Shown here in pieces: positions 9,259 to 64,000 of a stretch of DNA of 64,000 nucleotides. Below the pieces are notes generated by a model. That model searched no databases, had not been told where the DNA came from, and was given only the letters and a program-made list of their open reading frames with translations. The position numbers and the translations under genes are program-made. Location of the stretch: positions 402,318,001-402,382,000 of the forward strand of contig OZ024741.1 in the NCBI GenBank assembly GCA_964016885.1. The letters run 5' to 3'. How positions within the stretch are numbered: position 1 is the stretch's first letter; each line of letters opens with the position of its first letter. The DNA comes from Eledone cirrhosa (taxonomy: Eukaryota).

Positions 9259-10393
9259 ATCATCATCATCATCACCGTTTTACGTCCGTTCTTCCACGCT
9301 AGCATGGGTTAGACGGGTTGTCCTGTTGTGTGCAGTGTCTGGTCGGCTGACCATGCCTTGCTCATACAGGAACTGATTTGGCTTGATTTCTACAGCTGGA
9401 TGCCCTTCCTAACACCAACCTCATTTACAGTGAGTGCTGGGTGCTTTTTCGTGGCGCATACACGTCCACTTTACAGTGTGGGCTGGGTGCTTTTTTGCCG
9501 TGGCACCTCTACGACCACCTTGCGGTGGGGTGTGTGGGGGCATATTGTCTATATGCTTCAGCTTGTACCCATGGGAGGTAGGGTACTCTGTATTACTGCG
9601 TGACGCCAGAAGTCACGGTCGTGTGTCATTGCCTTTGAGAGGTGTAATTGGGTAAGGTCAGCTTTTATCACCTCATCCCAGATCATCTTGGGTCTCCCCA
9701 CTCCGCGGTTTCCATCAACTTCTAGTGCTCTGCACCTTTTTATGCAGCTGTCATCCTTCATACACATCACATGTCCATACCAGCGCAACCGCCTCTCCTG
9801 CACACAGAATTTGATTCCTCTTATGCTCAGTCTCTCTCTCAATTCATTTATGCTTTGTCGTTCACGTATATTACTGTTACACATCCATCGGAGCATGCAG
9901 GCTTCGTTTCTCTCCAATCTACGTAAGTCTTCCACCTTCAGCGCCCAGGTCTCACTACCATGCAACATTGATGTTCGGATACACGCATCATACAGTCTGC
10001 CTTTCATTCTGAGGGAGAAGTCTTTTGCAGCTAGCAGTGGTAGTAGTTCCCTAAACTTCTTCCATCCCGTTCTTACCCTAGTTATTGTACTTTCTGAACA
10101 CCTACCTCCGCTGCTAATTCGGTCACCTCGGTAGCAGAAGCTGTCTACTGTTTCTACAGAGCTCTCCCAGAGATTGGTGGTACTTGTTTCCTGTGGCTGT
10201 TTGCTGCTTGCTGTCTTAACACAGCTGCTGCATGTGAAGCCTACATTCTTAATTAAGCTTCCTGAGATCCCGCTACATCTCTTGTGTACCCATTGTTTGC
10301 ATTTGTGGCAGAGAATGGAGTTCCTACCTACACCTTTCTTACATACTGTGCAAGGCCTGAGGGGATCTGGGTTCTGTTTTCTCGTCTGTGATT
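9259..10393 (-). mobile_element. 5'-truncated RTE LINE (second subfamily)
   Basis: ORF 9558-10007 reads [23 protein letters not shown]; PHD-like cysteines upstream; 3' UTR and (GAT)n tail at ~9259-9275. Confidence 0.9.
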
Positions 10394-13506: not shown

Positions 13507-13627
13507 GTTTGTACAATTATTGTACAATTCTCGTAAAATATATGTCACATCTATTCCACCCTGTAAATACGAAACTGTTGCTCACAACATCAATTTATAT
13601 ATATCTATATTATTGTTCAGTTGGATA

Positions 13628-15762: not shown

Positions 15763-16170
15763 GGAGATGACCCCTTAGCCTTTGTCAAGGCAGAATTCTA
15801 GGAGAAGGAAAACTCTAATATAACACCTGCAACCCTGATGGTATCCAATGATGTTGACTTGTTCTTCTTTTTGGTAAATATCATCTTGGTTAAGAGAGTG
15901 GGACTGGCTTTGTGCAGTGCCTTTGCTCACTGTAAAAGCTTCACGGCACAGGCATTGCTTTGTATCTGGAGATCTCTCTGCACTTGTCGTCACATGGTAC
16001 CATGGGCCCAGCACTATGTGTCAATAATTGTCACAGGTGTAGTGTTTGTACCAGAGTTTTCAAGTCGCTGGCTGGACTAAAAAGTCACACTCGTTCAGCG
16101 CATCGGTAGGGGTTCTCCTACATGGATATAAAGTAGTGGCCGTACTCGAAAACGAGTTGGCAGCCACCAT
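15763..16170 (+). mobile_element. Probable RTE 5'UTR-like segment joined to a LINE 3' end encoding a C2H2 zinc finger
   Basis: CTAGGAGAAGGAAAACTCT resembles RTE 5'UTR motifs (from recall); the 3' part encodes [23 protein letters not shown]-stop and is followed by (TA)n. Confidence 0.5.
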
Positions 16171-16446
16171 ATATATATGTATATATATATGTGTATATAT
16201 ATATATATGTGTATATATATATATATATATATGTGTATGTATATATATGTGTATATATATATGTATATATATATATATGTGTGTATATATATATGTATAT
16301 ATATATATATGTGTGTATATATATATGTATATATATATATATGTGTGTATATATATATGTATATATATATATATATGTGTATATGTATATATATATATAT
16401 ATGTGTATATATATATGTATATATATATATATATGTGTATATATAT

Positions 16447-19400
16447 CCAAAGATAAAGCCAAATTCACCTCGTGGACGAGAATGCAAGCACTCCTCCTTG
16501 TTTCGGCCCAGGATGGCTAACATAACCCCATCCCCCCCCGCGCCCCACCGCTCCCACCCTCCAAACGCAATCCAAAACTTCAGAGTTGGTACCATGAATG
16601 TAGGCACCTTAAAGGGTCGCTCTAACGAGGTTGTAGAAATGCTTGAACGTAAGGAGGTCGATGTTTGTTGTATTCAAGAGACCAGGTGGAGGGGAGGGTT
16701 GGCTAGATTCATCGTGGGTAAAGAACGATGCTATAAGCTTTTCTGGGTGGGAAATGACAATGGGTTGGGTGGGGTAGGAATCATGGTAGCAGAAAAGTGG
16801 GCAGATAAGATAATAGACGTAAATAGAGTGAACGACAGAATAATTAAAATAAGACTTGTCCTCAATAAAACTACGGTGACAGTAATATCTGCGTACACAC
16901 CCCAATCCGGACTGCCCCGCGCTATAAAAGACAGATTCTACGAGACACTGATGCTCGCTACCTCCCAAATAACCGACAGTGACTATATAGTTATTGCAGG
17001 CGACCTAAATGGTCACGTTGGACAACATTGTGACGGCTATGACGGAATCCATGGAGGCTATGGGTTCGGTACTAGAAATGAGGAAGGCTCCAGAATCCTG
17101 GAATTCTGCGACGCAAATAACTTAACTATCTGTAACACTAACTTCAAAAAACGAGACAATCACTTGATCACCTATAGATCGGGGGAACACACAAGCCAGG
17201 TAGATTATATCCTTACCAGAAGACGTGACAGAGTGTCTGTTGTTAACACTAAATCCCACCCCCATGAAGAATTCACCTCCCAACATAGACTGATAATTAG
17301 CGACCTCATAGTCAGGACGAGACGTACTAGACAGCGGAAGAGGACTATCCTCAGGAGAAAAATATGGAAGCTAAAGGACCCCATAGCCAGAAATAAATTT
17401 CAAAGCATATTACTTGACGCTTTCGACAGTAAGGAAGAGCAATTAGAGTCGTATAATATAGAGGAACAGTGGGAATTCCTGAGAGCAAACCTGCTGACGG
17501 CGGCAGACGAAGTCTGTGGCTGGAGCAGGCCTGTAGGTAGGAGGAGAGTAACATGGTGGTGGAACAGTAAGGTGGAGGAGTCAATTAAGGCCAAAAAGCA
17601 GGCTTGGAAAGTATGGCGGGATGGGGGAAGTAGAGAAGACTATCAAGTGGCCAGGAGGGAAGCTAGAAGACAAGTGTACTTCGCAAGAAGGGAAGCAGAG
17701 GAAAGAAAGTTCAAGCATGTTCTACAACGTGAGGACCAAAAACGTGAGGTGTTCAGGATTGCCAGGCAATGTGTCAAGGAAAACCGTGATATTGTCAGGG
17801 AGAAGTGTGTACTTAACGATGATGGCATACTTGCCATCACCGACGCTGATAAGAAGGTAGCTTGGAAGTGTCACTACGAAAGGCTTCTAAATGAGGAGAA
17901 CAAATGGGAGAAAGACAGTCTCCCCCAGATCGATCCAATAGAGGGACCAGCAGTGTTAGTTGAAGGTAGTATAATAAGTAAGGCAATCAAAGATATGAAG
18001 ACGGGTAAGGCGGCTGGGCCTTCGGAAATAGTTGCTGAGATGCTGAAGGCATCTGGTTCGGTGGGACACACCATGGTCACCCGGATAGTTAACCAAGTCG
18101 TACAGAATGGGGTTGTTCCGAAGGAATGGCGTAGCAGCATCATCGTTAACTGCTATAAGGGAAAAGGAGATGCCCTAGATAGGAGTAACTATAGAGGCAT
18201 TAAATTAATCGACCAGGTCATGAAGGTCACGGAAAAAGTAATAGCGCAACTAATCAGAGAGAGAATTGATCTAGATGAAATGCAGTTCGGGTTTGTGTCA
18301 GGCAAAAGTACCACAGACGCTCTTTTCATTGTACGACAACTACAGGAGAAGTACCTAGCTAAAAGTAAACCCCTATACTTAGCTTTCGTCGACTTGGAGA
18401 AAGCCTTCGACAGAGTCCCCCGTTCCATTATCTGGTGGTCTCTTAGAAAACTAGGTGTTGACGAATGGCTTGTGAGAGCTATACAAGCCATGTATAAAGA
18501 AACAGTCAGTAAGGTTAGAATTAACAACGAATATAGTGAAGAGTTTAGCGTAAAAGTTGGTGTCCATCAGGGCTCTGTTCTTAGCCCCCTACTATTTATT
18601 ATTGCCCTTCAGGCTATAACAGAGGAGTTCAAGACCGGCTGCCCATGGGAACTCCTATACGCAGATGATCTAACACTCATAGCTGAATCAATGACCGAAC
18701 TAGAGAAGAAATTCCAAACGTGGAAGCACGGCCTAGAATCAAAAGGCCTTAAAATTAACCTGGCTAAGACTAAAGTTCTAGTTTGTAGGAAAGAAAATAA
18801 GGCGGCGGTCCCATCGGGGAAATGGCCATGCTCAGTGTGTAGGAAAGGCGTAGGTAGAAACTCCATTTTATGTCCCAAATGCAAAGTATGGGTGCATAAA
18901 AGATGTAGTGGGATCACAGGTAAGCTAACTAAGAACATAGATTTTACATGTGGCCGGTGCTCTGGTGCAATAAGTAGCAGCAAGTGCCCACAAAATACTA
19001 GCTCCTTCAACTGCGCAGAGGGTTCTATAGAAATAGTGGACAGCTTCCGTTATCTGGGTGACAAAATCAGCAGTGGGGGAGGGTGCTCTGAAAGTAGAGT
19101 AGCTAGAGTCAGAACTGGATGGAAAAAGTTCAGAGAGCTTATACCACTATTAGCCGCTAGAGGGTTCTCCCTAAAAATGAAAGGCAGGTTATACGATGCC
19201 TGCATACGAACAGCAATGCTGCATGGCAGTGAGACCTGGGCACTGTGTGCAGAGGATATAAGCAGACTAGAGAGGAACGAAGCTTGCATGCTCCGCTGGA
19301 TGTGCAATAGTAATATACGTGAACGGCAAAGCATAAACGAACTAAGGAAAAAATTAGAAATAAGAGGGATCAGATGTTGTTTACTCGAGAGAAGGCTACG

Positions 19401-20123
19401 TTGGTACGGTCAGGTGATGCGCATGAAAGACGACAGCTGTATAACAAAGTGCAGGGCAATAAAGATAGACGGTAGCCACGGAGTAGGCAGACCCAGAAAA
19501 ACATGGGACGAGCTGATAAATTCCGACCTCACACGCTTACACCTCTCCAAGACAATGTCACTGGACCGAGACCTTTGGCGGTACTCAGTAATAGAGAAGA
19601 CCCGCCTTACCTAAATACAAAGTAAAAACCTACTACAGTCAGTAGGCATCTCTATCAAAACACACCCCCGTCCCACCACCTCCACCCCACCCACACCGCC
19701 CCTTTCAATGTAAAGTTATGTTGGTCCCACAACATCCAGGCCGAAACAAATGAGATCGTGTAGGTGTCACGACAAAAAACACACAGTCCACGCTGTAAAT
19801 GTGGCCGTGTAGGCAACACGGTAAAAACCTCCCAGCCCCACACTGTAAATGTGGTTGGTGTTAGGAAGGGCATCCAGCTGTAGAAAACCCGCCAGACAGT
19901 CCACGCTGTAATGTGGCCGTGTAGGCAACACGGTAAAAACCTCCCAGCCCCACACTGTAAATGTGGTTGGTGTTAGGAAGGGCATCCAACTGTAGAAAAC
20001 CCGCCAGACAGTCCTATGCGAGCAAGACAACCATTCTTGCCTCAAGTGGGAAAACCCCCGTCCAAACCCATGCAAGCGTGGAACACGGACGCTAAACCTG
20101 ATGATGATGATGATGATGATGAT
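16447..20123 (+). mobile_element. RTE-clade LINE with intact ORF
   Basis: Short 5' leader, single uninterrupted ORF, ~480-bp 3' UTR and (GAT)n tail. Confidence 0.95.
16513..19614 (+). CDS. RTE LINE polyprotein (~1033 aa): APE endonuclease, reverse transcriptase, PHD-type zinc finger
   Basis: APE motifs [30 protein letters not shown]; RT motifs [42 protein letters not shown] 16513 is the first ATG after the microsatellite. Confidence 0.93.
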
Positions 20124-20682: not shown

Positions 20683-21085
20683 GTATTGGTAAACGGTATA
20701 GAAAATGCTGACACATTGTTCACAGTTGAAAAATGGTTTAATTAGGAATAAAAGAGTATTAGTGATTGTATGGGTTAGTATTCAGTTGTGGTTTTAAGTT
20801 TTTAAGTTTTTACTGGTTGCGCATTTCTAAATGCTTTTCAAAAATAATTTTGAGATAGAGTGTCCGTGCTGTTTGCTCTGATCTGATTAGTTTTGGGAAT
20901 TCTACCTGTTTTTATGTTAAAAAAATGGCTCCAGCGTTATTTTTGTGTTGCAAAAATGCTTGTGGTCAAAACAATTTTGATTGGTCGGTAGAGGTCATGT
21001 GAATGTAAAAAGTTGATTTTGCGCCAAGACTGTTTTTATGTTAAAATGTTAGAAAAGTGGCTCCAGCAAAAATTATTGGTCAAAA

Positions 21086-21897
21086 TTCCCTACAACTTAG
21101 CCAAGAGAATCTGTACTATAGTCTCCAATAAAAACATCTGCTACTTACGGCTACAAGAACTAAAGGACACACTCATAGGCAGGGACTACCCTGCATCACT
21201 AATTGACAATGGAATCCAACGTGCCCTAAAACTCAGTACCCAGGACCTTAGACACCCTAAAGTAAATCAACCAAAACTAAAAGCTCTTCCATACATCTCC
21301 ACACACAACCCCCTCAACAACGAGGCCTTTGACACCATCCTCCAGAACATCCCTGTATTGAAAAAGGACCATAGAATGAACCAAATTCTACGAACACACG
21401 ATATCATAAAGAGCAAAAGACAATCCAAGTCAATGAAAAACATCTTAACACATGCCAAAGTACTGCCAACCACAACAACGAAACCCACAGTAAAAAAATG
21501 CGATAGACCCAACTGTGGCATTTGCATCAACCTAATAGAGGGTTCGGAATTCTATTTCAAAGATGGACAACGTTTTATAGTAAAACACAATTTCACATGT
21601 GCATCGGAAAATTTAATATATGTATTAACTTGTTCAGGTTGTCGAGAACAATACATAGGCCAGACCAAAAACAGCCTCCGCCAACGCATGACTGTCCATA
21701 GATCCCAAATTAAAATACGGGAATACAGGAAAATACCACTGAGTGAACACATTGATACCTGCGCCGCCCAAAATCATCCCAACTTCAGAATCTTTCCCCT
21801 CTACAAATTTAAAGATAATGCCACCCACACCCAGCGCATCAGCAAGGAATCTTACTTCATTAACAAATACGGACCCCGTCTAAACACTTCTCCCTAA
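21086..21897 (+). pseudogene. Penelope ORF C-terminus (RT thumb/linker plus GIY-YIG endonuclease), 5'-truncated
   Basis: IPYNLAKRI..L..RDYP, Cys motif CDRPNCGIC, NLIYVLTCSGCREQYIGQTKNSLRQRMTVH, ESYFI..LN. Confidence 0.88.
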
Positions 21898-25349: not shown

Positions 25350-25910
25350 ATAATAATTGTTTCTACTTTTGGCACAAGGCCAGCAATTATCCCAGTACAT
25401 TACAGGTAGTTTATTTTATCGACCTTGTAAGGATGAAAGGCAAAGTTGACCTCGGCAGGATTTGAACTGAGAGAGATAAATACCAGAAATGAATACCACG
25501 AAGCATGTTATCCTATGTTGTAAAGACTCTGCCATTTCACCACCTATATATAATAATAATAATGGTTTCTTATATAGGCACAAGGCCTGCAATTTGAAGG
25601 AAAGGGAAAAGTCTATTAAATCAACCCCTGTGCATAACTGGTACTTTATTTTATCGACTCTGTAAGGATGAAATAATAATGGTTTCTTATATAGGCACAA
25701 GGCCAGCAATTTTGGGGGAGGAGAAAGTCGATTAAATCTACCCCAGTGCGTGACTGGTACTTTATTTTATCGACCTCCCCGTAAGGATGAAAGGCAAAGT
25801 TAACCTCGGCGGGATTTGAACTCAGATCATAAAGAGCCATAACTCTATGCTGCAAAGCATGGCGTCTGACCTTCTACAGATACTGTCAATCCACAATAAT
25901 AATAATAATT
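25350..25910 (-). mobile_element. Cluster of family B tRNA-SINEs
   Basis: Repeated GGCACAAGGCC...TTTATCGAC...GGATGAAA bodies, two with GGATTTGAACT, joined at (TAA)n tails. Confidence 0.8.
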
Positions 25911-38604: not shown

Positions 38605-39150
38605 CTGGGACGAGGGGATAAAATCTGACCTTGCACACTTAGACCTCTCTAAGTGTGCAAGGTCACTGGATTGAGATGCAGTAGTACAGAAGACCTGCCT
38701 TCCCTTACGTACAAAGTTAAACCTACAGTCAGTAGGTACCTCTTAACCCAATATACACCCCACACTGCCAACAACAGGACAACCTACAGTCAGTAGGCAC
38801 CTCTTAACCCAATATACATCCCACACTGCCAACAACAGGACAACCTACAGTCAGTAGGCACCTCTTAACCCAATATACATCCCACACTGCCAACAACAGG
38901 ACAACCTACAGTCAGTAGGCACCTCTTAACCCAATATACACCCCACACTGCCAACAACAGGACAACCTACAGTCAGTAGGCACCTCTTAACCCAATATAC
39001 ATCCCACACTGCCAACAACAGGACAACCTACAGTCAGTAGGCACCTCTTAACCCAATATACATCCCACACTGCCAACAACAGGACAACCCATCTAACCTA
39101 TGCTAGCGTGGAAGAATGGACATAAAACGATGATGATGATGATGATGACC
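38605..39150 (+). mobile_element. RTE 3' fragment containing six 61-bp tandem repeats
   Basis: WDEGIKSDLAHLDLSK ORF end; unit ACCTACAGTCAGTAGGCACCTCTTAACCCAATATACATCCCACACTGCCAACAACAGGACA; (GAT)n tail. Confidence 0.85.
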
Positions 39151-45166: not shown

Positions 45167-45314
45167 TTTTGTCGTCGAGTTTGCTGTACATGTCGTAAAC
45201 CACCAGCAAAACCTGTGTTTCAAGTGTTGTGTTTGGGACTTTCTGGATCAGGAAAAAGTTCCATTATATATGCCTTAAGTAAAGATTGTGTTGATAAACT
45301 GGAACCTACTGTAG
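45167..45314 (+). CDS. ARL15: ADP-ribosylation factor-like GTPase 15, internal exon (P-loop exon)
   Basis: Pyrimidine tract-CAG acceptor and GTGAGT donor; 148 nt, phase 0 to 1. Encodes FCRRVCCTCRKPPAKPVFQVLCLGLSGSGKSSIIYALSKDCVDKLEPTV(G), similar to human ARL15 CFRALCCKGPPPARPEYDLVCIGLTGSGKTS. Confidence 0.88.
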
Positions 45315-45399: not shown

Positions 45400-46492
45400 T
45401 TAACCCTTTAGCATTTAAACCGGCCATATCTGGTGTTAAGGTATTGTTCTCAACATAAATAATATCAAAATCTCATAGATTCAATATTATGTGAGGTAAA
45501 GCCTTTACCATGAAAATATAATAGTAAATATAGAGTAATGTAAATGTTATGTAAGATATTATTTAAGATATTTATGTAAGGTAAAGCCTTTACCATGAAA
45601 ATACAATAATAAATATAGAGTAATGTAAATGTTATGTGAGTTATTATTTAAGCTAATTATGTGAGATAAAGCCTTTACCATGAAAGGCCGAGGGTGTCTT
45701 GGCATCACTCAGCAAGACCTTTGTTAACTGCTCTCCAGTCATCTATTTAAAGCTGTATACAGCTATGGTACGACCACACTTGGAATTCGCATCATCAGTC
45801 TGGAACCCCTATTTTGCTCAGAACATTGACCTCCTGGAAACTGTTCAGAGACGTGCAACCAAGCGCATACCCTCCATCAGACACCTACCATACTGTGAAC
45901 GCCTTGCTTCCCTGGGCATGGATTCATTGAAGCTCCGACGTCTGGCAATGGACTTGGTAAACACCCACAAAATTATTAACCATCTCGCCAACAACAACCC
46001 TGAGCACCTTTTTGATCTCCATGTGTCTAACACACATGGACATGCCTACAAAGTCAGAAAACAGCACAGCTCCCATGACTTTCAGAAACATTTTTTCACG
46101 CTTAGAGTTGCTGAAGTATGGAACAAACTGCCTGCGTCAGTTGTTAGCTGCCGAGACACTGCATCCTTTAAAACCCTCATGCTTCCCGAAATTCGCCAAA
46201 ACTACATCTGATGTATCCCTTCCATACACATGCACACATGTGTATATCATGACTCATGCACTGTTCATTTTCCTGACGTTTGTACATTACCCTATGTACT
46301 ATACATACACTTTTGATGAGTTGTAGTGCACCTGAGCACTGTACACAATATTTTCATTATTATTATTATTTTAAAAAAAATACAATAGTAAATATAGAGT
46401 AATGTAAATGTTATGTGAGATATTATTTAAGATAATTATGTGAGGTAAAGTCTTTACTATGAAAATACAATAGTAAATATAGAGTAATGTAA
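45400..46492. mobile_element. piggyBac-type MITE copy with internal ~80-bp tandem repeats, missing right TIR, CR1 inserted
   Basis: TTAACCCTTTAGCATTTA start; internal homology to 32620-32885 and 47611-47831. Confidence 0.75.
45686..46370 (+). mobile_element. CR1 LINE 3' fragment
   Basis: LYTAMVRPHLEFASSVWNP..LETVQRRATKRI..FFTLRVAEVWNKLP with (ATT)n tail. Confidence 0.9.
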
Positions 46493-48899: not shown

Positions 48900-51030
48900 G
48901 GATTTCATTTATTGGCCACAAGGGCCGACATGTAGGGGACAATACAAAGACAGGGACAGTGGGGGTTTACAATAAGGTTAAGTAAAGGTGCACAATGGCA
49001 AGACTAATTTAATAATGAAGATATATAAAATAAACTATGTATAAATATAACAAAATAAATAAATTCCCCTATTGGGGGTGGACGACCCAGAGGTGACTCA
49101 GGTACCCCACCAATCCTGAACCACCCTGCGCTTCTAGGGCACCCAGGGAGAGCATCTTTCTCCTCAAGTTAGCTAGCCTATAGGCGCATGGTCAGTGTAG
49201 GCCCATTCACACGGGCCATTCTCGCCACATTCATCCACTTTTTAGCAAATGTACTAGGGGGCAGCACTTCTCTCTCCACCCTCACCTTCCTTTCCAGGTG
49301 AAACTTGAAGAAGTTGATGAGGGATTGGCCGAAGAGAAAAGTGTCTGTCTGCAGTCCTTTTAATCTGGTCCACCATTTAACCTCTTTCGCAACTACCACC
49401 AGACAACTACCACTCTTCCTGACCTAAGGAAGGCCGTGGGTCGATCTTCACTACGGACTCTGCCAATAGCCGGACCCGTCTACATGCGACAGTAGCTGTT
49501 CGACATAACTCCACAAGTCAGTAATGCACGGACATTGGACAAGTGCGTGCAGAACGGTTTCGTCATTCTGTGCGCATCTTGGGCAGGTCCGTCTGACAGC
49601 ACTTCCGTGCCTGTAGAGTTTATCCCGAACCGGCAGTGCCCCCCCGGTAGCACTGCCAAGCGAGGGATTTCTGGAAATTGTCCATCGTCCCCGGCTCGAA
49701 AGTCCTCCGGTACAGACTGGTCAGTTCGACTTCGTCAAGGCCCAAAGCTTCTCCGAGTGCGTCATCGCACTTGCCCACCACTAATCCTCTATAGAACTCG
49801 AGAGTGGAAGTTCCACTGATTGCATTGCCCACTTGGTAGGGGGCAAGTGAGTGCCTGGCAACATTCCAGGTGCCAGTCACCAAGTCTCGGTCTCTTCTTG
49901 ACTCAGGACTGCAGCTCAGTCAAAGAAACGAGCTGCGGAAAGGCCCATCTGATAAACTGTGACCACACCTGTTCACCGTTTAGGCAGAATATCTGGAGAT
50001 GTTGCAGCCTCAGTGCATGTCTGCGCATCATTAGCCACGGCATGCCCAGCCCTCCGCATAGAGGGTGTTGGCAGCGATAGACCGCCTCACCAACGGAATT
50101 TGTCTTCTCCACAAGAATTTGAAGAGGAGCCGTTCCAACTTGACGAGGCGCGGATGGGGGAAAGTCACGACAGTCAGGTGGTAGTAGCTGACGGACGCGA
50201 TGTACGCATTCGCCACCTTCGCGCGACCTTTCAGCGATAGATTCCTTGCAGCCCATTTATGGATGAGACTGGTTACCCTGCTCATTACCTCGTTCCAATT
50301 CTTATCCACCTGGAGGTCTGGCCCGAACCAAGCCCCGAGCAACTTTATCAGTCCATCCGTCCAGCGCCGAACGACGCTGTTGGATGACATGGACTTGCCT
50401 CTCCAGGTTCCAAGCTGCAAGCCCACTGACTTTTCCGGGTTAAGTTTTGCTCCCGTCAACCTTTCATATTCCTCCAATAAGTTGCCAACCACCTCAATTT
50501 CTGAGGTGTCCGACACCCTCACAGTGATGTCTGCATAAGCCGACACAGCCCTTCCACGTCCCGGTTTGAGCGGGCGCCCTGCAACAGCTCCAGCTTCCGG
50601 AGTAAAGGCTCGAGAGTCAATACGTACAGAAGGGAAGAGAGAAGGCACCCTTGACGGACTGATCGGGAGAGCTGAAATGGTTCCGAGAGGTGGCCATTAA
50701 CCTTCACCACTGAGTATGTGTCGTTGTGCAATGCAGCGATTCAGCTTCTGAAGACAGGGCTGAAGCCAGCCTCTTTGAGGACAGCCTCCAGATACCAATT
50801 GTCGACCCTATCGAATGATTTCGATTGATCTAAATTGATCACTGCCCCACCGAAGCCAGGTTTACACCCTACCCTCTCTATGATGTATCGTGTATGGACT
50901 TGGATGGGATTGCACAAGTTTGCGCCTCCCCAACCAAATCCTCGACAACAAGCGCCAATCTCTTTGCTCACACCTTGGCCAAAATCTTAAACACGGTGTT
51001 GAGTAGAGTTATGGGCCTGAAGTTGTCTAA
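48900..51030 (-). mobile_element. 5'-truncated, frameshifted Tx1/L1-clade LINE
   Basis: NFRPITLLNTVFKILAK, LDQSKSFDRV, SVRQGCLLSSLLYVLTLEPLL, AYAD, KLLG, LSLKGRAKV, GGLGMP; (TAA)n at both ends. Confidence 0.85.
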
Positions 51031-51308
51031 TAATAATAATAATAATAATGTTTGATTTGTTTGCAAGCCTCATTGTGTTATGTTTTGTTCTTGATAACCA
51101 TCCTCTATGTTAGAGAGAAACATCAAATTCTAAAAATAAAGATGTTATATTATATTTAGAAAAGGGTTTATATTAATGATGGTGGAAAGAAACTAGGGTG
51201 AAGGATGTGAATGTCCTTCCTTGTATTCTTGAAATTTCTTCAGTAAAGCATAATGTGTAATTAAATGTGTTGTGTAATATAATTTAATACATTTTCATGG
51301 TGAAATGA

Positions 51309-51555
51309 CTGAAGCTTGCTTGGTAGGGTCATGTATCTTGCCACAACTCCTTGAATAAAACCCTTCTTTAGGGCAGAGTCTAGGGTGGGCAAAGGACAGA
51401 CAAACAAAGAATATCCTGGTCCGACAACATCAAAGACTGGACTGGTCAAAACACAGCGAACCTTCTACTCCTGATGGTGAATAGACTGGTGGTGACGGCT
51501 GACTGTGAAAGTGTCTAGAGTGGCACCCCAACGACTGGCTATACCAGTGGAACAT
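51309..51555 (+). mobile_element. Decayed RTE LINE ORF C-terminus running into the satellite
   Basis: LKLAW*GHVSCHNSLNKTLL*GRV*GGQRTDKQRISWSDNIKDWTG..NR (frameshift) WW*RLTVKVSRVAPQRLAIPVE. Confidence 0.8.
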
Positions 51556-54500
51556 CTAGAATGGCACCCCAACAACTGGCTGTACCAGTGGCACATCTAG
51601 AGTGGTACCCCAAATACTGGCTGTACCAGTAGCACATCTAGAGTAACACCCCAACAACTGGCTGTACCAGTGGCACATCTAGAGTGGTACCCCAACGACT
51701 GGCTGCACCAGTGGCACATCTAGAGTAACACCCCAAAGACTGGCTGTACCAGTAGCACATCTAGAGTAACACCCCAAAGACTGGCTGTACCAGTAGCACA
51801 TCTAGAGTAACACCCCAAAGACTGGCTGTACCAGTGGCACATCTAGAGTAACACCCCAACAACTGGCTGTACCAGTGGCACATCTAGAGTGGTACCACAA
51901 CGACTGGCTGCACCAGTGGCACATCTAGAGTAACACCCCAAAGACTGGCTGTACCAGTAGCACATCTAGAGTAACACCCCAAAGACTGGCTGTACCAGTA
52001 GCACATCTAGAGTAACACCCCAAAGACTGGTTGTACCAGTAGCACATCTAGAGTAACACCCCAAAGACTGGCTGTACCAGTAGCACATCTAGAGTAACAC
52101 CCCAAAGACTGGCTGTACCAGTGGCACATCTAGAGTAACACCCCAACAACTGGCTATACCAGTGGCACATCTAGAGTGGTACCCCAACGACTGGCTGCAC
52201 CAGTGGCACATCTAGAGTAACACCCCAAAGACTGGCTGTACCAGTGGCACATCTAGAGTAACACCCCAACAACTGGCTGTACCAGTGGCACATCTAGAGT
52301 GGTACCCCAACAACTGGCTATACCAGTGGCACATCTAGAGTGGTACCCCAACGACTGGCTGCACCAGTGGCACATCTAGAGTAACACCCCAAAGACTGGC
52401 TGTACCAGTGGCACATCTAGAGTAACACCCCAACAACTGGCTATACCAGTGGCACATCTAGAGTGGTACCCCAACGACTGGCTGCACCAGTGGCACATCT
52501 AGAGTAACACCCCAAAGACTGGCTGTACCAGTGGCACATCTAGAGTAACACCCCAAAGACTGGCTGTACCAGTGGCACATCTAGAGTAACACCCCAAAGA
52601 CTTGCTGTACCAGTGGCACATCTAGAGTAACACCCCAAAGACTGGCTGCACCAGTGGCACATCTAGAGTGACACCCCAACAACTGGCTGTACCAGTGGCA
52701 CATCTAGAGTAACACCCCAAAGACTTGCTGTACCAGTGGCACATCTAGAGTAACACCCCAACAACTGGCTGTACCAGTGGCACATCTAGAGTGGTACCCC
52801 AACAACTGGCTGTACCAGTGGCACATCTAGAGTGACACCCCAACAACTGGCTGTACCAGTGGCACATCTAGAGTGGTACCCCAACAACTGGCTGTACCAG
52901 CGGCACATCTAGAGTGGTACCCCAACAACTGGCTGTACCAGTGGCACATCTAGAGTGACACCCCAAAGACTGGCTGTACCAGTAGCACATCTAGAGTGAC
53001 ACCCCAACAACTGGCTGTACCAGTGGCACATCTAGAGTGACACCCCAACAACTGGCTGTACCAGTGGCACATCTAGAGTGACACCCCAACAACTGGCTGT
53101 ACCAGTGGCACATCTAGAGTGAAACCCCAACAACTGGCTGTACCAGTGGCACATCTAGAGTGGTACCCCAACAACTGGCTCAACCAGTGACACATCTAGA
53201 GTGGTACCCCAACAACTGGCTGTACCAATGGCACATCTAGAGTAACACCCCAACAACTGGCTGTACCAGTGGCACATCTAGAGTAACACCCCAACAACTG
53301 GCTGTACCAGTGGCACATCTAGAGTGACACCCAACAACTGGCTGTACCAGTGGCACATCTAGAGTAACACCCCAACAACTGGCTGTACCAGTGGCACATC
53401 GAGAGTAACACCCCAACAACTGACTGTACCAGTGGCACATCTAGAGTAACACCCCAACAACTGGCTGTACCAGTGGCACATCTAGAGTGACACCCAACAA
53501 CTGGCTATACCAGTGGCACATCTAGAGTAACACCCCAACGACTGGCTGTACCAGTGGCACATCTAGAGTGACACCCAACAACTTGCTGTACCAGTGGCAC
53601 ATCTAGAGTAACACCCCAACAACTGGCTGTACCAGCGGCACATCTAGAGTGGTACCCAACAACTGGCTGTACCAGCGGCACATCTAGAGTGGTACCCAAC
53701 AACTGGCTGTACCAGTGGCACATCTAGAGTGACACCCCAACGACTGGCTGTACCAGTGGCACATCTAGAGTGACACCCAACAACTGGCTGTACCAGTGGC
53801 ACATCTAGAGTGACACCCCAAAGACTGGCTGTACCAGTGGAACATCTAGAGTGACACCCCAACAACTGACTGTACCAGTGGCACATCTAGAGTGGTACCC
53901 CAACAAGTGGGTGTACCAGTGGCACATCTAGAGTGACACCCCAACAACTGGCTGTACCAGTGGCACATCTAGAGTGGTACCCCAACGACTGGCTGTACCA
54001 GTGGCACATCTAGAGTGACACCCCAACAACTGGCTGTACCAGTGGCACATCTAGAGTAACACCCCAACAACTGGCTGTACCAGTGGCACATCTAGAGTAA
54101 CACCCCAACAACTGGCTGTACCAGTGGCACATCTAGAGTGGTACCCCAACAACTGGCTGTACCAATGGCACATCTAGAGTAACACCCCAACAACTGGCTG
54201 TACCAGTGGCACATCTAGAGTAACACCCCAACAACTGGCTGCACCAGTGGCAAATCTAGAGTGACACCCCAAAGACTGGCTGTACCAGTGGCACATCTAG
54301 AGTAACACCCCAGCAACTGGCTATACCAGTGGCACATCTAGAGTGACACCCAAAAGACTGGCTGTACCAGTGGCACATCTAGAGTGACACCCCAACAACT
54401 GGCTGTACCAGTGGTGAATCTAGAGTGACACCCCAACAACTGGCTATACCAGTGGCACATCTAGAGTGACACCCCAACAACTGGCTATACCAGTGGCACA

Positions 54501-57500
54501 TCTAGAGTGACACCCCAAAGACTGGCTGTACCAGTGGCACATCTAGAGTGACACCCCAACAACTGGCTGTACCAGTGGTAAATCTAGAGTGACACCCCAA
54601 CAACTGGCTATACCAGTGGCACATCTAGAGTGACACCCCAACAACTGGCTATACCAGTGGCACATCTAGAGTAACACCCCAAAGACTGGCTGTACCAGTG
54701 GCACATCTAGAGTAACACCCCAACAACTGGCTATACCAGTGGCACATCTAGAGTGACACCCCAAAGACTGGCTGTACCAGTGGCACATCTAGAGTGACAC
54801 CCCAACAACTGGCTATACCAGTGGTACATCTAGAGTGAAACCCCAAAGACTGGCTGTACCAGTGGCACATCTAGAGTAACACCCCAACAACTGGCTGTAC
54901 CAGTGGCACATCTAGAGTGACACCCAACAACTGGCTGTACCAGTGGCACATCTAGATTAACACCCCAAAGACTGGCTGTACCAGTAGCACATCTAGAGTG
55001 ACACCCCAACAACTGGCTGTACCAGTAGCACATCTAGAGTAACACCCCAAAGACTGGCTGTACCAGTAGCACATCTAGAGTAACACCCCAAAGACTGGCT
55101 GTACCAGTAGCACATCTAGAGTGACACCCCAACAACTGGCTGTACCAGTAGCACATCTAGAGTAACACCCCAAAGACTGGCTGTACCAGTAGCACATCTA
55201 GAGTGACACCCCAACAACTGGCTGTACCAGTAGCACATCTAGAGTAACACCCCAAAGACTGGCTGTACCAGTGGCACATCTAGAGTAACACCCCAAAGAC
55301 TGGCTGTACCAGTAGCACATCTAGAGTAACACCCCAAAGACTGGCTGTACCAGTAGCACATCTAGAGTAACACCCCAAAGACTGGCTGTACCAGTAGCAC
55401 ATCTAGAGTAACACCCCAAAGACTGGCTGTACCAGTGGCACATCTAGAGTGACACCCCAAAGACTGGCTGTACAAGTGGCACATCTAGAGTAACACCCCA
55501 ACGACTGGCTGTACCAGTGTCACATCTAGAGTGACACCCCAAAGACTGGCTGTACCAGTGGCACATCTAGAGTAACACCCCAACAACTGGCTGTACCAGT
55601 GGCACATCTAGAGTGGTACCCCAACGACTGGCTGCACCAGTGGCACATCTAGAGTGGTACCCCAACAACTGGCTCAACCAGTGACACATCTAGAGTGGTA
55701 CCCCAACAACTGGCTGTACCAATGGCACATCTAGAGTAACACCCCAACAACTGGCTGTACCAGTGGCACATCTAGAGTAACACCCCAACAACTGGCTGTA
55801 CCAGTGGCACATCTAGAGTGACACCCAACAACTGGCTGTACCAGTGGCACATCTAGAGTAACACCCCAACAACTGGCTGTACCAGTGGCACATCTAGAGT
55901 AACACCCCAACGACTGGCTGTACCAGTGTCACATCTAGAGTGACACCCCAAAGACTGGCTGTACCAGTGGCACATCTAGAGTAACACCCCAACGACTGGC
56001 TGTACCAGTGGCACATCTAGAGTGACACCCCAACAACTGGCTGTACCAGTGGCACATCTAGAGTGACACTCCAACAACTGGCTGTACCAGTGGCACATCT
56101 AGAGTTGCACCCCAACAACTGGCTGTACCAGTGGCACATCTAGAGTGACACTCCAACAACTGGCTGTACCAGTGGCACATCTAGAGTGACACCCCAACAA
56201 CTGTACCAGTGGCACATCTAGAGTGACACCCCAACAACTGGCTGTACCAGTGGCACATCTAGAGTGACACTCCAACAACTGGCTGTACCAGTGGCACATC
56301 TAGAGTGACACCCCAACAACTGTACCAGTGGCACATCTAGAGTGACACCCCAACAACTGTACCAGTGGCACATCTAGAGTGGTACCCCAACAACTGGCTG
56401 TACCAGTGGCACATCTAGAGTGACACCCCAATAACTGGCTGTACCAGTGGCACATCTAGAGTGACACCCAACGACTGCACCAGTGGCACATCTAGAGTGA
56501 CACCCAACAACTGGCTGTACCAGTGGCACATCTAGAGTGACACTCCAACAACTGGCTGTACCAGTGGCACATCTAGAGTTGCACCCCAATAACTGGCTGT
56601 ACCAGTGGCACATCTAGAGTGACACCCCAACAACTGTACTAGTGGCACATCTAGAGTGACACCCCACGACTGGCTGTACCAGTGGCACATCTAGAGTGAC
56701 ACCCCAATAACTGGCTGTACCAGTGGCACATCTAGAGTAACACCCCAAAGACTGGCTGCACCAGTGGCAAATCTAGAGTGACACCCCAACAACTGGCTGT
56801 ACCAGTGGCACATCTAGAGTGACACCCAACAACTTGCTGTACCAGTGGCACATCTAGAGTGACACCCCAACAACTGGCTGTACCAGTGGCACATCTAGAG
56901 TGGTACCCCAAAGACTGGCTGTACCAGTAGCACATCTAGAGTAACACCCCAAAGACTGGCTGTACCAGTAGCACATCTAGAGTAACACCCCAAAGACTGG
57001 CTGTACCAGTGGCACATCTAGAGTGACACCCAACAACTGGCTGTACCAGTAGCACATCTAGAGTAACACCCCAAAGACTGGCTGTACCAGTGGCACATCT
57101 AGATTAACACCCCAAAGACTGGCTGTACCAGTGGCACATCTAGAGTAACACCCCAAAGACTGGCTGTATCAGTGGCACATCTAGAGTAACACCCCAAAGA
57201 CTGGCTGTACCAGTGGCACATCTAGAGTAACACCCCAAAGACTGGCTGCACCAGTGGAAAATCTAGAGTGACACCCCAACAACTGGCTGTACCAGTGGCA
57301 CATCTAGAGTGGTACCCCAACAACTGGCTGTACCAGTGGCACATCTAGAGTGGTACCCTAACAACTGGCTGTACCAGTGGCACATCTAGAGTGGTACCCC
57401 AACAACTGGCTGTACCAATGGCACATCTAGAGTGACACCCCAACAACTGGCTGTACCAGTGGCACATCTAGAGTGGTACCCCAACAACTGGCTGTACCAG

Positions 57501-60500
57501 TGGCACATCTAGAGTGGTACCCCAACAACTGGCTGTACCAGTGGCACATCTAGAGTAACACCCCAACAACTGGCTGTACCAGTGGCACATCTAGAGTGGT
57601 ACCCCAACAAGTGGGTGTACCAGTGGCACATCTAGAGTGACACCCCAACAACTGGCTGTACCAGTGGCACATCTAGAGTGGTACCCCAACGACTGGCTGT
57701 ACCAGTGGCACATCTAGAGTGACACCCCAACAACTGGCTGTACCAGTGGCACATCTAGAGTAACACCCCAACAACTGGCTGTACCAGTGGCACATCTAGA
57801 GTGGTACCCCACAACTGGCTGTACCAATGGCACATCTAGAGTAACACCCCAACAACTGGCTGTACCAGTGGCACATCTAGAGTGGTACCACAACGACTGG
57901 CTGTACCAGTGGCACATCTAGAGTGGTACCCCAACGACTGGTTGTACCAGTGGCACATCTAGAGTGACACCCCAACAACTGGCTGTACCAGTGGCACATC
58001 TAGAGTGGTACCCCAACGACTGGCTGTACCAGTGGCACATCTAGAGTGGTACCCCAACAACTGGCTGTACCAATGGCACATCTAGAGTAACACCCCAACA
58101 ACTGGCTGTACCAGTGGCACATCTAGAGTGGTACCCCAACAACTGGCTGTACCAGTGGCACATCTAGAGTGACACCCCAAAGACTGGCTGTACCAGTAGC
58201 ACATCTAGAGTAACACCCCAACAACTGGCTGTACCAGTGGCACATCTAGAGTGACACCCCAACAACTGGCTGTACCAGTGGCACATCTAGAGTAACACCC
58301 CAACAACTGGCTGTACCAGTGGCACATCTAGAGTGACACCCAACAACTGGCTGTACCAGTGGCACATCTAGAGTAACACCCCAACAACTGACTGTACCAG
58401 TGGCACATCTAGAGTAACACCCCAACAACTGGCTGTACCAGTGGCACATCTAGAGTGACACCCAACAACTGGCTGTACCAGTGGCATATCTAGAGTGACA
58501 CCCAACAACTTGCTGTACCAGTGGCACATCTAGAGTGACACCCAACAACTGGCTGTACCAGTGGCACATCTAGAGTGACACCCAACAACTGGCTGTACCA
58601 GTGGCACATCTAGAGTGACACCCAACAACTTGCTGTACCAGTGGCACATCTAGAGTAACACCCCAACAACTGGCTGTACCAGTGGCACTTCTAGAGTGGT
58701 ACCCAACAACTGGCTGTACCAGTGGCACATCTAGAGTGACACCCCAACGACTGGCTGTACCAGTGGCACATCTAGAGTGACACCCAACAACTGGCTGTAC
58801 CAGTGGCACATCTAGAGGAACACCCCAAAGACTGGCTGTACCAGTGGAACATCTAGAGTGACACCCCAACAACTGACTGTACCAGTGGCACATCTAGAGT
58901 GGTACCCCAACAAGTGGGTGTACCAGTGGCACATCTAGAGTGACACCCCAACAACTGGCTGTACCAGTGGCACATCTAGAGTGGTACCCCAACGACTGGC
59001 TGTACCAGTGGCACATCTAGAGTGACACTCCAACAACTGGCTGTACCAGTGGCACATCTAGAGTTGCACCCCAATAACTGGCTGTACCAGTGGCACATCT
59101 AGAGTGACACCCCAACAACTGGCTGTACCAGTGGCACATCTAGAGTAACACCCCAACAACTGGCTGTACCAGTGGCACATCTAGAGTGGTACCCCAACAA
59201 CTGGCTGTACCAATGGCACATCTAGAGTAACACCCCAACAACTGGCTGTACCAGTGGCACATCTAGAGTAACACCCCAACAACTGGCTGTACCAGTGGCA
59301 CATCTAGAGTGACACCCAACAACTGGCTGTACCAATGGCACATCTAGAGTAACACCCCAACAACTGACTGTACCAGTGGCACATCTAGAGTAACACCCCA
59401 ACAACTGGCTGTACCAGTGGCACATCTAGAGTGACACCCAACAACTGGCTGTACCAGTGGCACATCTAGAGTGACACCCAACAACTTGCTGTACCAGTGG
59501 CACATCTAGAGTGACACCTAACAACTGGCTGTACCAGTGGCACATCTAGAGTGACACCCAACAACTGGCTGTACCAGTGGCACATCTAGAGTGACACCCA
59601 ACAACTTGCTGTACCAGTGGCACATCTAGAGTAACACCCCAACAACTGGCTGTACCAGTGGCACATCTAGAGTGGTACCCAACAACTGGCTGTACCAGTG
59701 GCACATCTAGAGTGACACCCCAACGACTGGCTGTACCAGTGGCACATCTAGAGTGACACCCAACAACTGGCTGTACCAGTGGCACATCTAGAGGAACACC
59801 CCAAAGACTGGCTGTACCAGTGGAACATCTAGAGTGACACCCCAACAACTGACTGTACCAGTGGCACATCTAGAGTGGTACCCCAACAAGTGGGTGTACC
59901 AGTGGCACATCTAGAGTGACACCCCAACAACTGGCTGTACCAGTGGCACATCTAGAGTGGTACCCCAACGACTGGCTGTACCAGTGGCACATCTAGAGTG
60001 ACACTCCAACAACTGGCTGTACCAGTGGCACATCTAGAGTTGCACCCCAATAACTGGCTGTACCAGTGGCACATCTAGAGTGACACTCCAACAACTGGCT
60101 GTACCAGTGGCACATCTAGAGTTGCACCCCAATAACTGGCTGTACCAGTGGCACATCTAGAGTGACACCCCAACAACTGGCTGTACCAGTGGCACATCTA
60201 GAGTTGCACCCCAACAACTGGCTGTACCAGTGGCACATCTAGAGTGACACCCCAACAACTGGCTGTACCAGTGGCACATCTAGAGTGACACCCCAACAAC
60301 TGGCTGTACCAGTGGCACATCTAGAGTGACACTCCAACAACTGGCTGTACCAGTGGCACATCTAGAGTTGCACCCCAATAACTGGCTGTATCAGTGGCAC
60401 ATCTAGAGTGACACCCCAACAACTGGCTGTACCAGTGGCACATCTAGAGTGACACCCCAACAACTGGCTGTACCAGTGGCACATCTAGAGTAACACCCCA

Positions 60501-63500
60501 ACAACTGGCTGTACCAGTGGCACATCTAGAGTGACACCCCAAAGACTGACTGTACCAGTGGCACATCTAGAGTTACACCCCAACGACTGGCTGTACCAGT
60601 GGCACATCTAGAGTTGCACCCCAATAACTGGCTGTACCAGTGGCACATCTAGAGTGACACTCCAACAAGTGGCTGTACCAGTGGCACATCTAGAGTGACA
60701 CCCAACGACTGCACCAGTTGTACATCTAGAGTGACACCCCAAAGACTGGCTGTACCAGTGGCACATCTAGAGTTACACCCCAACGACTGGCTGTACCAGT
60801 GGCACATCTAGAGTGACACCCCAACAACTGGCTGTACCAGTGGCACATCTAGAGTGACACCCAACAACTGGCTGTACCAGTGGCACATCTAGAGTTACAC
60901 CCCAACGACTGGCTGTACCAGTGGCACATCTAGAGTGACACCCCAACAACTGGCTGTACCAGTGGCACATCTAGAGTGACACTCCAACAACTGGCTGTAC
61001 CAGTGGCACATCTAGAGTGACACCCCAACAACTGTACCAGTGGCACATCTAGAGTGACACCCCAACAACTGGCTGTACCAGTGGCACATCTAGAGTGACA
61101 CTCCAACAACTGGCTGTACCAGTGGCACATCTAGAGTGACACCCCAACAACTGTACCAGTGGCACATCTAGAGTGACACCCCAACAACTGTACCAGTGGC
61201 ACATCTAGAGTGGTACCCCAACAACTGGCTGTACCAGTGGCACATCTAGAGTGACACCCCAATAACTGGCTGTACCAGTGGCACATCTAGAGTGACACCC
61301 AACGACTGCACCAGTGGCACATCTAGAGTGACACCCAACAACTGGCTGTACCAGTGGCACATCTAGAGTGACACTCCAACAACTGGCTGTACCAGTGGCA
61401 CATCTAGAGTGACACCCCAACAACTGTACTAGTGGCACATCTAGAGTGACACCCCACGACTGGCTGTACCAGTGGCACATCTAGAGTGACACCCCAATAA
61501 CTGGCTGTACCAGTGGCACATCTAGAGTAACACCCCAAAGACTGGCTGCACCAGTGGCACATCTAGAGTTGCACCCCAATAACTGGCTGTACCAGTGGCA
61601 CATCTAGAGTGACACCCCAATAACTGGCTGTACCAGTGGCACATCTAGAGTAACACCCCAAAGACTGGCTGCACCAGTGGCACATCTAGAGTGACACCCC
61701 AACAACTGGCTGTACCAGTGGCACATCTAGAGTGACACCCAACAACTTGCTGTACCAGTGGCACATCTAGAGTGACACCCCAACAACTGGCTGTACCAGT
61801 GGCACATCTAGAGTGGTACCCCAAAGACTGGCTGTACCAGTAGCACATCTAGAGTAACACCCCAAAGACTGGCTGTACCAGTAGCACATCTAGAGTAACA
61901 CCCCAAAGACTGGCTGTACCAGTGGCACATCTAGAGTGACACCCAACAACTGGCTGTACCAGTAGCACATCTAGAGTAACACCCCAAAGACTGGCTGTAC
62001 CAGTGGCACATCTAGATTAACACCCCAAAGACTGGCTGTACCAGTGGCACATCTAGAGTAACACCCCAAAGACTGGCTGTATCAGTGGCACATCTAGAGT
62101 AACACCCCAAAGACTGGCTGTACCAGTGGCACATCTAGAGTAACACCCCAAAGACTGGCTGCACCAGTGGAAAATCTAGAGTGACACCCCAACAACTGCC
62201 TGTACCAGTGGCACATCTAGAGTGACACCCCAACAACTGGCTGTACCAGTGGCACATCTAGAGTGGTACCCCAACAACTGGCTGTACCAGTGGCACATCT
62301 AGAGTGACACCCCAACAACTGGCTGTACCAGTGGCACATCTAGAGTGGTACCCCAACAACTGGCTGTACCAGCGGCACATCTAGAGTGACACCCCAAAGA
62401 CTGGCTGCACCAGTGGCAAATCTAGAGTGACACCCCAACAACTGGCTGTACCAGTGGCACATCTAGAGTGACACCCCAACAACTGGCTGTACCTGTGGCA
62501 CATCTAGAGTGACACCCCAACAACTGGCTGTACCAGTGGCACATCTAGAGTGACACCCCAACAACTGGCTGTACCAGTGGCACATCTAGAGTGGTACCCC
62601 AACAACTGGCTGTACCAGTGGCACATCTAGAGTGGTACCCCAACAACTGGCTGTACCAATGGCACATCTAGAGTGACACCCCAACAACTGGCTGTACCAG
62701 TGGCACATCTAGAGTGGTACCCCAACAACTGGCTGTACCAGTGGCACATCTAGAGTGGTACCCTAACAACTGGCTGTACCAGTGGCACATCTAGAGTGGT
62801 ACCCCAACAACTGGCTGTACCAATGGCACATCTAGAGTGACACCCCAACAACTGGCTGTACCAGTGGCACATCTAGAGTGGTACCCCAACAACTGGCTGT
62901 ACCAGTGGCACATCTAGAGTGGTACCCCAACAACTGGCTGTACCAGTGGCACATCTAGAGTAACACCCCAACAACTGGCTGTACCAGTGGCACATCTAGA
63001 GTGGTACCCCAACAAGTGGGTGTACCAGTGGCACATCTAGAGTGACACCCCAACAACTGGCTGTACCAGTGGCACATCTAGAGTGGTACCCCAACGACTG
63101 GCTGTACCAGTGGCACATCTAGAGTGACACCCCAACAACTGGCTGTACCAGTGGCACATCTAGAGTAACACCCCAACAACTGGCTGTACCAGTGGTACAT
63201 CTAGAGTGGTACCCCACAACTGGCTGTACCAATGGCACATCTAGAGTAACACCCCAACAACTGGCTGTACCAGTGGCACATCTAGAGTGGTACCCCAACG
63301 ACTGGCTGTACCAGTGGCACATCTAGAGTGGTACCCCAACGACTGGCTGTACCAGTGGCACATCTAGAGTGACACCCCAACAACTGGCTGTACCAGTGGC
63401 ACATCTAGAGTGGTACCCCAACGACTGGCTGTACCAGTGGCACATCTAGAGTGGTACCCCAACAACTGGCTGTACCAATGGCACATCTAGAGTAACACCC

Positions 63501-64000
63501 CAACAACTGGCTGTACCAGTGGCACATCTAGAGTGGTACCCCAACAACTGGCTGTACCAGTGGCACATCTAGAGTGACACCCCAAAGACTGGCTGTACCA
63601 GTAGCACATCTAGAGTAACACCCCAACAACTGGCTGTACCAGTGGCACATCTAGAGTGACACCCCAACAACTGGCTGTACCAGTGGCACATCTAGAGTAA
63701 CACCCCAACAACTGGCTGTACCAGTGGCACATCTAGAGTGACACCCAACAACTGGCTGTACCAGTGGCACATCTAGAGTAACACCCCAACAACTGACTGT
63801 ACCAGTGGCACATCTAGAGTAACACCCCAACAACTGGCTGTACCAGTGGCACATCTAGAGTGACACCCAACAACTGGCTGTACCAGTGGCACATCTAGAG
63901 TGACACCCAACAACTTGCTGTACCAGTGGCACATCTAGAGTGACACCCAACAACTGGCTGTACCAGTGGCACATCTAGAGTGACACCCAACAACTGGCTG
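51514..64000 (+). repeat. 41-bp tandem satellite (~300 monomers, continues past the window end)
   Basis: Monomer TCTAGAGTGACACCCCAACAACTGGCTGTACCAGTGGCACA with a few recurrent variants; period 41 (TCTAGA at 51514, 51555, 51596). Confidence 0.97.

Follow-up and report, generated by a model that had tools for sequence, protein, structure and literature searches.

We analyzed a 64,000-nucleotide stretch of the Eledone cirrhosa genome (the window; assembly GCA_964016885.1, contig OZ024741.1, positions 402,318,001 to 402,382,000 of the forward strand, or G000:C2:402,318,001-402,382,000 in our numbering), the last 12 kb of which are filled by a tandem repeat whose 41-bp unit derives from the 3' end of an RTE-type long interspersed nuclear element (LINE). 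Genome-wide comparison revealed about 80 loci with the same junction between units, as well as a larger array of 44.9 kb elsewhere; thus, the focal locus is one of many repeated loci and not the unique birth site that the initial annotation had seen in it. We consider it likely that a doubled LINE end was inherited and spread by retrotransposition and that the arrays expanded later, locally, at each site.

Focal array and the LINE end in its unit

All positions refer to the window; the following 60 kb of the contig were added, and window-extended positions count on from the end of the window. The 41-bp period covers 51514-64000 on the + strand, where Tandem Repeats Finder (TRF) counted 306.7 copies with 92% matches, in agreement with the approximately 300 copies over more than 12 kb reported initially. 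With the added sequence, the array runs on to window-extended ~71,916 (~71,916-71,925 in locus L031), giving 501.6 copies (~502 units) and 20.4 kb, with no N in its full length, and it contains interspersed unit variants as well as large recent block duplications. Upstream lies a 5'-truncated, decayed RTE-type LINE body (51289..51513, +; family alignments mostly start at 51297) with C-terminal codons of the open reading frame (ORF), followed by the native 35-base LINE end (51514..51548, +), which encodes SRVAPQRLA-PV and forms the upper part of a terminal stem-loop, and by the first 6-base junction (51549..51554, +; family form GGCACA). A degenerate LINE tail with ATTG repeats closes the array, and directly after it comes the right copy of a probable target site duplication (TSD; 20 bases, window-extended 71945-71964, beyond the window); the left copy (19 bp, 51270..51288, +) possibly extends ~14 bp more leftward. 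The left copy differs from the right flank by 1 mismatch and 1 gap, and an equal score was reached in 0 of 76 control flanks. The far end, where the initial annotation had advised looking for a native tail and a TSD, thus offers both a LINE-type tail and a probable TSD. Since the latter brackets the body (~225 bases), the array, and the tail, these three probably represent a single 5'-truncated RTE insertion. The sequencing data comprised three restriction site-associated DNA runs and two sets of contigs from a single sample, which may be that of the assembly itself; one contig from each set matched 51059-51442 or 51059-51434 with 0 differences, and coverage of the far junction was not found.

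The decayed ORF end translates as LAW*GHV..KTLL*GRV*GG..SWSDNIKDWTG, and VSRVAPQRLAIPVE comes next, in the next frame. Thus, the continuity with the first monomer noted initially is real, but the frame shifts at a short deletion near 51483 in the focal copy. The proposal that the monomer is the RTE 3' terminus, likewise, holds for 35 of its 41 bases, which the native single-copy family end supplies as the last ORF codons plus the hairpin, but not for the six bases GGCACA, which single-ended copies lack; the core of the 41-mer is therefore confirmed as the single-copy end of the family. Single-ended copies translate ...KASRVAPQRLAAPVAGT* in a single frame, the stop being the first tail repeat, so the final E of the focal unit derives from the junction, and intact proteins of other organisms close similarly, e.g., with KASTMAPQRASTPLTG. 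The closest intact relatives are single proteins of 1,012-1,035 amino acids (aa) with an apurinic/apyrimidinic endonuclease (APE) and a reverse transcriptase (RT), the best showing 67% identity over 128 aa, and decayed matches to the APE and RT regions at 51-64% were found in the genome analyzed here. RTE-clade elements have one ORF of ~1,000 aa encoding an AP endonuclease and an RT. The very short 3' untranslated region and the short tandem-repeat end also agree with this clade; the tails are (ATG)n or (ATTG)n, the median body is 230-290 bases, and 5' truncation is heavy. We call the element RTE-type on the basis of this architecture and of C-terminal motifs, as 0 of 45 hits were named RTE. 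A Pfam search of C-terminal fragments returned nothing useful, and no intact family member was found among the matches listed (150 of 152, and a further 47). TSDs were significant at 2 of 70 loci across the family and undetectable in most copies.

The DNA ends of related elements were examined at 11 of 48 loci. Six of the 11 retain one layout, in which a C-run and AC precede a stem with its loop, and two further bases lead to GG(G)A and a tail of simple repeats. The stems of these relatives are 3-5 bp long and differ in sequence, so that a terminal stem-loop is conserved with changes on both sides, as in stringent-type LINEs; the majority end of our family folds likewise, with a z of only -1.75. 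Considering that the hairpin is conserved in related ends and the ORF end in intact proteins, these comparisons indicate that the terminal hairpin is a conserved LINE feature and that the direction was from LINE to repeat. Array-internal units retain the upper stem without the closing GGGA. Accordingly, the ACTGG/CCAGT hairpin described initially stands as the terminal stem of the LINE, but the monomer as a satellite unit folds no better than shuffled sequences (DNA z of 0.04, -0.31, and -0.30 for one to three units; RNA z of -0.20), and a second dyad around TCTAGA did not go beyond chance.

In addition, the hairpin loop is changed from CTGCA to CTGTA in 20 of 47 first array units versus 5 of 40 single ends, and CTGTA prevails in most of the largest arrays; it is either an inherited variant or one that favors expansion.

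Distribution of repeated ends and local growth of arrays

A search with 51290-51560 returned 676 candidates, of which 40 were scored and 30 fetched; among 29 other copies, 12 ended in one unit plus tail, 16 carried at least two units, and one was interrupted. Across the 3-Gb assembly, an exact 20-base junction had 2,207 matches (control, 0), including 292 in the focal array and 653 in an array on contig C291. Matched strict patterns found 46 single-type and 23 repeat-type ends; on inspection, one of the 30 single-type ends fetched proved to be an array and two of the 23 repeat-type ones proved not to be repeated, and repeated ends make up about one third of all ends. A hand count gave ~82 repeated loci, a lower bound, distributed over 19 or more large contigs. 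Dispersed copies carry from 2 to ~1,100 units, nearly all with one common 6-base junction; of 388 junction matches, 381 have a 6-base spacer between the stem and the next unit.

For closer comparison, 47 arrays were chosen regardless of body by their junction (14 loci), tail (20), or monomer (15), two loci being shared, with 15 of ~21 newly listed places fetched. A LINE body lay upstream in 29 of the 47 (in two across a deletion, one of these recognized by eye from 17 bases), only the native start in 8, and the remaining 10 began within repeats, the tail being retained in 10/10. The 18 arrays with 12 or fewer bases of LINE body thus all retain the native start or the tail. By hand tally, 47/47 arrays have a LINE body, native start, or LINE tail, so that a satellite without an RTE element, the finding that would have spoken for a LINE landing beside an existing array, was not seen among them.

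The largest array (G000:C291, ~290,950-335,800, L312-L317) comprises 44.9 kb and ~1,100 units of 41, 27, and 14 bases with a 457-unit internal offset, a length that is provisional given the small contig and an 18-kb internal repeat; the RTE body upstream of it (110 bases at 80-84%) is joined over a ~315-base deletion. At 20.4 and 44.9 kb, the two largest arrays are long, head-to-tail, and rich in variants and block duplications, as satellites are, but high abundance in heterochromatic blocks was not found, the arrays being dispersed and mostly shorter than 4 kb in an assembly that may under-represent them. The repeat therefore behaves as a dispersed minisatellite with rare arrays of satellite length, and its fixed position and orientation inside dispersed copies, together with the size series, are as in tandem repeats of the Ogre or Tetris type, which are borne by a transposable element (TE).

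Judged by divergence, the LINE family is old, the focal body differing by 19.7% from the family majority and the family by ~15%. The focal array contains 91 unit types among 498 parsed pieces, with long repeated strings at offsets of, e.g., 19, 24, 68, 110, and 243 units, and four of its block pairs differ by 0.16, 0.4, 0.95, and 2.7%. Only 1 of the 91 types also occurs in the C291 array, exact strings common to the focal array and any other fetched array are shorter than 100 bases, and the two largest arrays each possess their own variants. This low block divergence and these private variants indicate that array growth is local and recent and that most of the focal length is far younger than the insertion, in line with the later amplification envisaged in the initial annotation.

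Two further observations concern copy number and kinship. L078 and L079 (C1:441.70 and 442.04 Mb) have common flanks and ~6 versus ~8 units, i.e., a segmental duplicate with a change in copy number, while L075-L077 (C1:432-435 Mb) have private body variants in common and constitute a local subfamily or duplicates.

Age of the junction and origin of the repeat

First junctions were counted at 45 of the 47 repeated loci, namely, those with a 41-type junction, 12 of which had been picked via the junction. Their ends read CA in 42, CG in 2, TA in 1, and TG in none, while the corresponding native site is a decaying CpG (CG in 20, CA in 34, and TG in 24 of 88 ends); in 28 loci not picked by junction, the probability of finding no TG is ~3e-7. 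Such an excess of CA is not expected from fresh duplication of single ends, suggesting that most source RNAs already held the junction. Moreover, the two units within eight two-unit loci differ by 24-43% and unrelated single ends by 20%; dimer units at least as divergent as single ends imply that two-unit copies date from insertion, a comparison weakened by 3 of the 8 values being inflated by indels and by the slightly different sites underlying the two distances. The bodies of single and repeated copies are of similar age (15.3% versus 14.2%, p 0.53). From the 10 of 47 arrays that start in repeats and the median body near 250 bases, we estimate ~2-3 units in the template, and source RNAs probably already carried that number.

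On the explanation that we consider likely, one or a few doublings of the LINE 3' end occurred in source elements. The first of these may have been a slip of the RT where it paused immediately upstream of the unit, and doubled ends would have reached many sites through ordinary retrotransposition. As the 3' end is kept by every truncated copy, each insertion from such a source would plant a ready-made tandem seed. Priming would still begin at the last unit, since the complete hairpin with the closing GGGA and the tail are found there only, and 5' truncation within a multi-unit RNA would be expected to yield arrays that start in repeats and keep the tail. The arrays would then expand site by site via slippage and unequal exchange.

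Several observations weigh against this inheritance of a doubled end. No intact source copy carrying the repeat was found. The first junction starts with G in 42 and with T in 3 of the 45 loci, T being the base of the native tail, which favors a base already fixed in the source, but the count of G is inflated because many loci were chosen by patterns that hold G; the minority T-form junctions, three of them with CG or TG (L008, L014, and L186), could be separate origins. Repeated ends occur with both tails (16 of 37 ATG and 15 of 27 ATTG copies, p 0.45), the linkage between body and tail is kept in repeated copies (p 0.005 and 0.011; third site, 0.27), and in a 57-tip tree repeated ends form no clade, requiring 16 changes versus 19.2 when shuffled (P 0.078). 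An extra step is therefore needed, e.g., conversion or a collapse of later sources to a single unit; the simplest repair would be a doubling before the split of the subfamilies, followed by collapse in some later sources. In addition, 7 of the 10 arrays starting in repeats were chosen by a tail-like pattern, a clear TSD was found in 0 of these 10, and deletions after insertion could look like truncation.

Most long copies have a single end. By hand tally, protein-picked loci with a readable end comprised 46 single and 9 repeated ones, 13 of 43 stretches in one set having been dropped as unreadable or ambiguous. Bodies longer than 710 bases were found in 7 of 40 single versus 0 of 47 repeated copies (p 0.003, with mixed sampling), and the longest body among repeated copies was 708 bases (87 copies measured). 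A frameshifted C terminus that left repeated sources poorer or non-autonomous would fit this pattern. Two candidate markers of repeated copies were rejected: no body site survived 160 tests (best p 0.002), and a shared short non-autonomous head was not seen, as four repeated copies end at 654-708 body bases with nothing common further upstream.

A related possibility, to which we give a low but not negligible probability, is that the RTE RT reiterated its terminal hairpin at a pause and that the tandem-ended RNAs were mobilized as mini-retroelements without a body, a reading based on the 18 body-poor arrays and the absence of long bodies among repeated copies. If true, the repeat unit of such a satellite seed would be the very signal that the enzyme recognizes, and the seed would retrotranspose for that reason. 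The initial annotation had proposed, next to later slippage, reiterative copying of the RNA 3' end during insertion; applied to all loci, the RT would do this at each insertion, from a single-ended template. Such copying would account for repeats in both subfamilies, for the intact linkage, and for the old dimers; moreover, 8 of 37 native-start arrays are cut no more than ~12 bases from where the unit begins (p 4e-4 if 5% is assumed; six clear cases and p 0.01 on a stricter count). A small hairpin is predicted next to this site, so that the RT may pause there and jump, the best argument left for this mechanism. In addition, one slip at an AGT[G/T]GC microhomology gives the 27-base units that alone were seen in the part read of L132 and L136. 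The common junction, however, would demand two jumps and a base foreign to the single-copy template, identically at dozens of loci; the TG decay form is missing from every first junction, the 3-base GCG microhomology should yield a 39-base product, of which there is none among the 388 junction matches, and the truncation cluster could stem from A-rich microhomology with targets. With the derived junction bases arguing against it, we regard copying at each insertion as unlikely.

Ectopic gene conversion or circular repeat DNA, acting through the 35-base homology, could instead have brought repeats into single-ended insertions, which we likewise judge improbable. Conversion yields one junction in both subfamilies while hosts keep their own body, tail, and TSD, and internal units are somewhat less diverged than single ends (8.4% versus 11.1% from the majority, a contrast that is not significant at p 0.24; 16% versus 20% between loci). 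Yet the dimers are old, the focal array has no long strings in common with other arrays, a third of the loci would have to recombine through 35 bases, and longer copies, which offer more homology, are less often repeated (9 of 55 versus 23 of 69, p 0.04, hand tally). That each locus doubled its own single end by hairpin-aided replication slippage long after insertion, a variant of the later slippage that the initial annotation had also allowed as the seed, seems very improbable: slippage variants (14-, 27-, and 36/37-base units) are common within arrays and the short arrays L124, L072, and L023 are very uniform (3-5% within), but independent slips on decayed copies would show the CG, CA, or TG of each locus and varied spacing, which is not the case, and dimers as old as their insertions as well as the unremarkable structure of the monomer also argue against it. 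Finally, the little or no LINE body upstream of 18 arrays could suggest that the satellite came first and that the LINE either landed next to it or took up one of its units as an end. We find this scarcely credible. The ORF end that the unit encodes is conserved in intact RTE-type proteins from other organisms, and its hairpin is likewise conserved in related ends; the probable focal TSD brackets body, array, and tail together, and those 18 arrays retain the native start or tail.

Comparison with known systems, host gene, and other repeats

Variable tandem units also occur in the retrotransposed RNAs of SVA elements (the variable number tandem repeat [VNTR]) and mouse L1 (5' monomers), but the former are internal and the latter 5', while the unit here is the terminal hairpin. 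A Tetris-derived satellite of Drosophila virilis reportedly arises from the internal tandem repeats of the transposon, and the central repeats of Helitron/DINE elements give rise to satellite arrays (PMC9659126); these are DNA transposons with internal repeats, whereas here the priming end is repeated. A close parallel in design is the set of Ogre-derived satellites of Lathyrus sativus, in which a few short arrays expanded to satellite length (PMC7004042). As here, short arrays sit at a fixed place in a dispersed retroelement, few have expanded, and the direction is from element to satellite. Ogre is a long terminal repeat (LTR) element, however, with repeats downstream of gag-pol and expansion mainly in primary constrictions (PMC7004042), whereas ours is a non-LTR element whose unit combines a coding end with a terminal hairpin, and the focal expansion lies in a gene intron.

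LINE-derived satellites include the cetacean common satellite (3' part of L1), chicken HinfI (CR1), PROsat and Pvc20 (L1 ORF2), and the HeT-A-derived 18HT (PMC9659126, PMC6947457), and their monomers, like ours, come from a LINE 3' or ORF2 segment. What these reviews describe, in the portions consulted, is the LINE likeness of established satellites, whereas here arrays of 1 to ~1,100 units remain inside their parent at ~80 loci; the word RTE has 0 uses in the main text of either review. Minisatellites derived from Alu, B1, and MaLR arose by slippage at short repeats in element copies (PMC6947457) and are, as here, dispersed, of retroelement origin, and subject to later unequal exchange; unlike them, our junction looks inherited and arrays reach 20-45 kb. 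Stem-loops at the 3' end are known from stringent-type LINEs such as UnaL2, ZfL2, SART1, and RTE in mammals (PMC5135761, PMC3747384), which, like our family, have a short tail of simple repeats after the terminal stem-loop. By this likeness, the terminal hairpin here is a putative RT recognition stem-loop, but in the stringent LINEs slippage affects the short tail repeat, whereas here the hairpin-bearing 41 bases repeat.

Literature listings, which exclude subscription journals, Repbase/Dfam, and supplements, showed neither a description of this repeat nor one of a satellite built from an RTE terminal hairpin, and the word "satellite" occurs 0 times in the consulted text of a repeat annotation for Octopus vulgaris (PMC13282606). 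The principle of TE-borne satellites is already known; what sets this case apart is a satellite unit that is the LINE's own terminal hairpin. Transposon-born satellites are usually inferred from the likeness of an old satellite to an element, but here one seed was set at about the same time at no fewer than ~80 loci, which now hold 1, 2, 3 ... 500, or 1,100 units. Most arrays are still framed by LINE body and tail, providing a replicated natural experiment on which seeds explode; with seed and age nearly fixed, comparisons between loci can address local recombination, intron transcription, unit variants, and array length. Moreover, LINEs that truncate at the 5' end can scatter minisatellites when the repeat lies in the part kept by every copy.

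As the initial annotation had presumed, the surroundings are those of an ARL15 intron. An Arf-family (ARL15-like) coding exon bounded by AG..GT lies at 45167..45314 (+), on the same strand as the LINE, and a second Arf-family exon, also on the + strand, lies at C2:402,479,500, 110 kb beyond the array start. The downstream exon has ARL15 as its top PDB match (E 4.6e-14), while the upstream exon alone matches weakly, with ARL15 ranked second (E 0.035). The two exons are 116 kb apart (C2:402,363,168-402,479,733), and no short exon was located in between, where one is expected. These matches support a placement of the array in an ARL15-like intron, on the sense strand.

At the far end of the array (window-extended ~71,918-71,933, L031), 16 bases of the focal tail are perfectly complementary to the most common monomer, which may reflect fold-back repair or overlap with the TSD; fold-back (quasi-palindrome) repair was dropped as a candidate, since part of the tail also matches the left flank, maybe as TSD. 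Right of the insertion lies a very abundant repeat resembling a short interspersed nuclear element (SINE) (L031:8010-8050, window-extended ~72,010-72,050), whose head shows, in reads and contigs, a step back by 41 bases; other copies of this SINE-like repeat have a tandem duplication of period 41 whose sequence is unrelated to the array.

Elsewhere in the window, an uninterrupted stop-to-stop frame of 1,160 aa at 16132-19614 (+) encodes the endonuclease, RT, and PHD finger of another LINE family and is possibly a young element, with related fragments at 1732-2112, 9558-10391, and 12278-13516 (-). From their motifs, we take 20992-21897 (+) to be GIY-YIG/Penelope-like remains, 6078-8316 (-) to be Dong/R4-like, 50031-51020 (-) to be an L1/Tx1-like frame, and 45684-46211 (-) to be a CR1-like frame. 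Smaller tandem repeats are found at 2380-2973 (50/59 bases), 38720-39089 (61), 19783-20014 (112), and 25555-25792 (116), the last two of which are presumably duplicated SINE parts, and tandem growth from pieces of retroelements may be common here.

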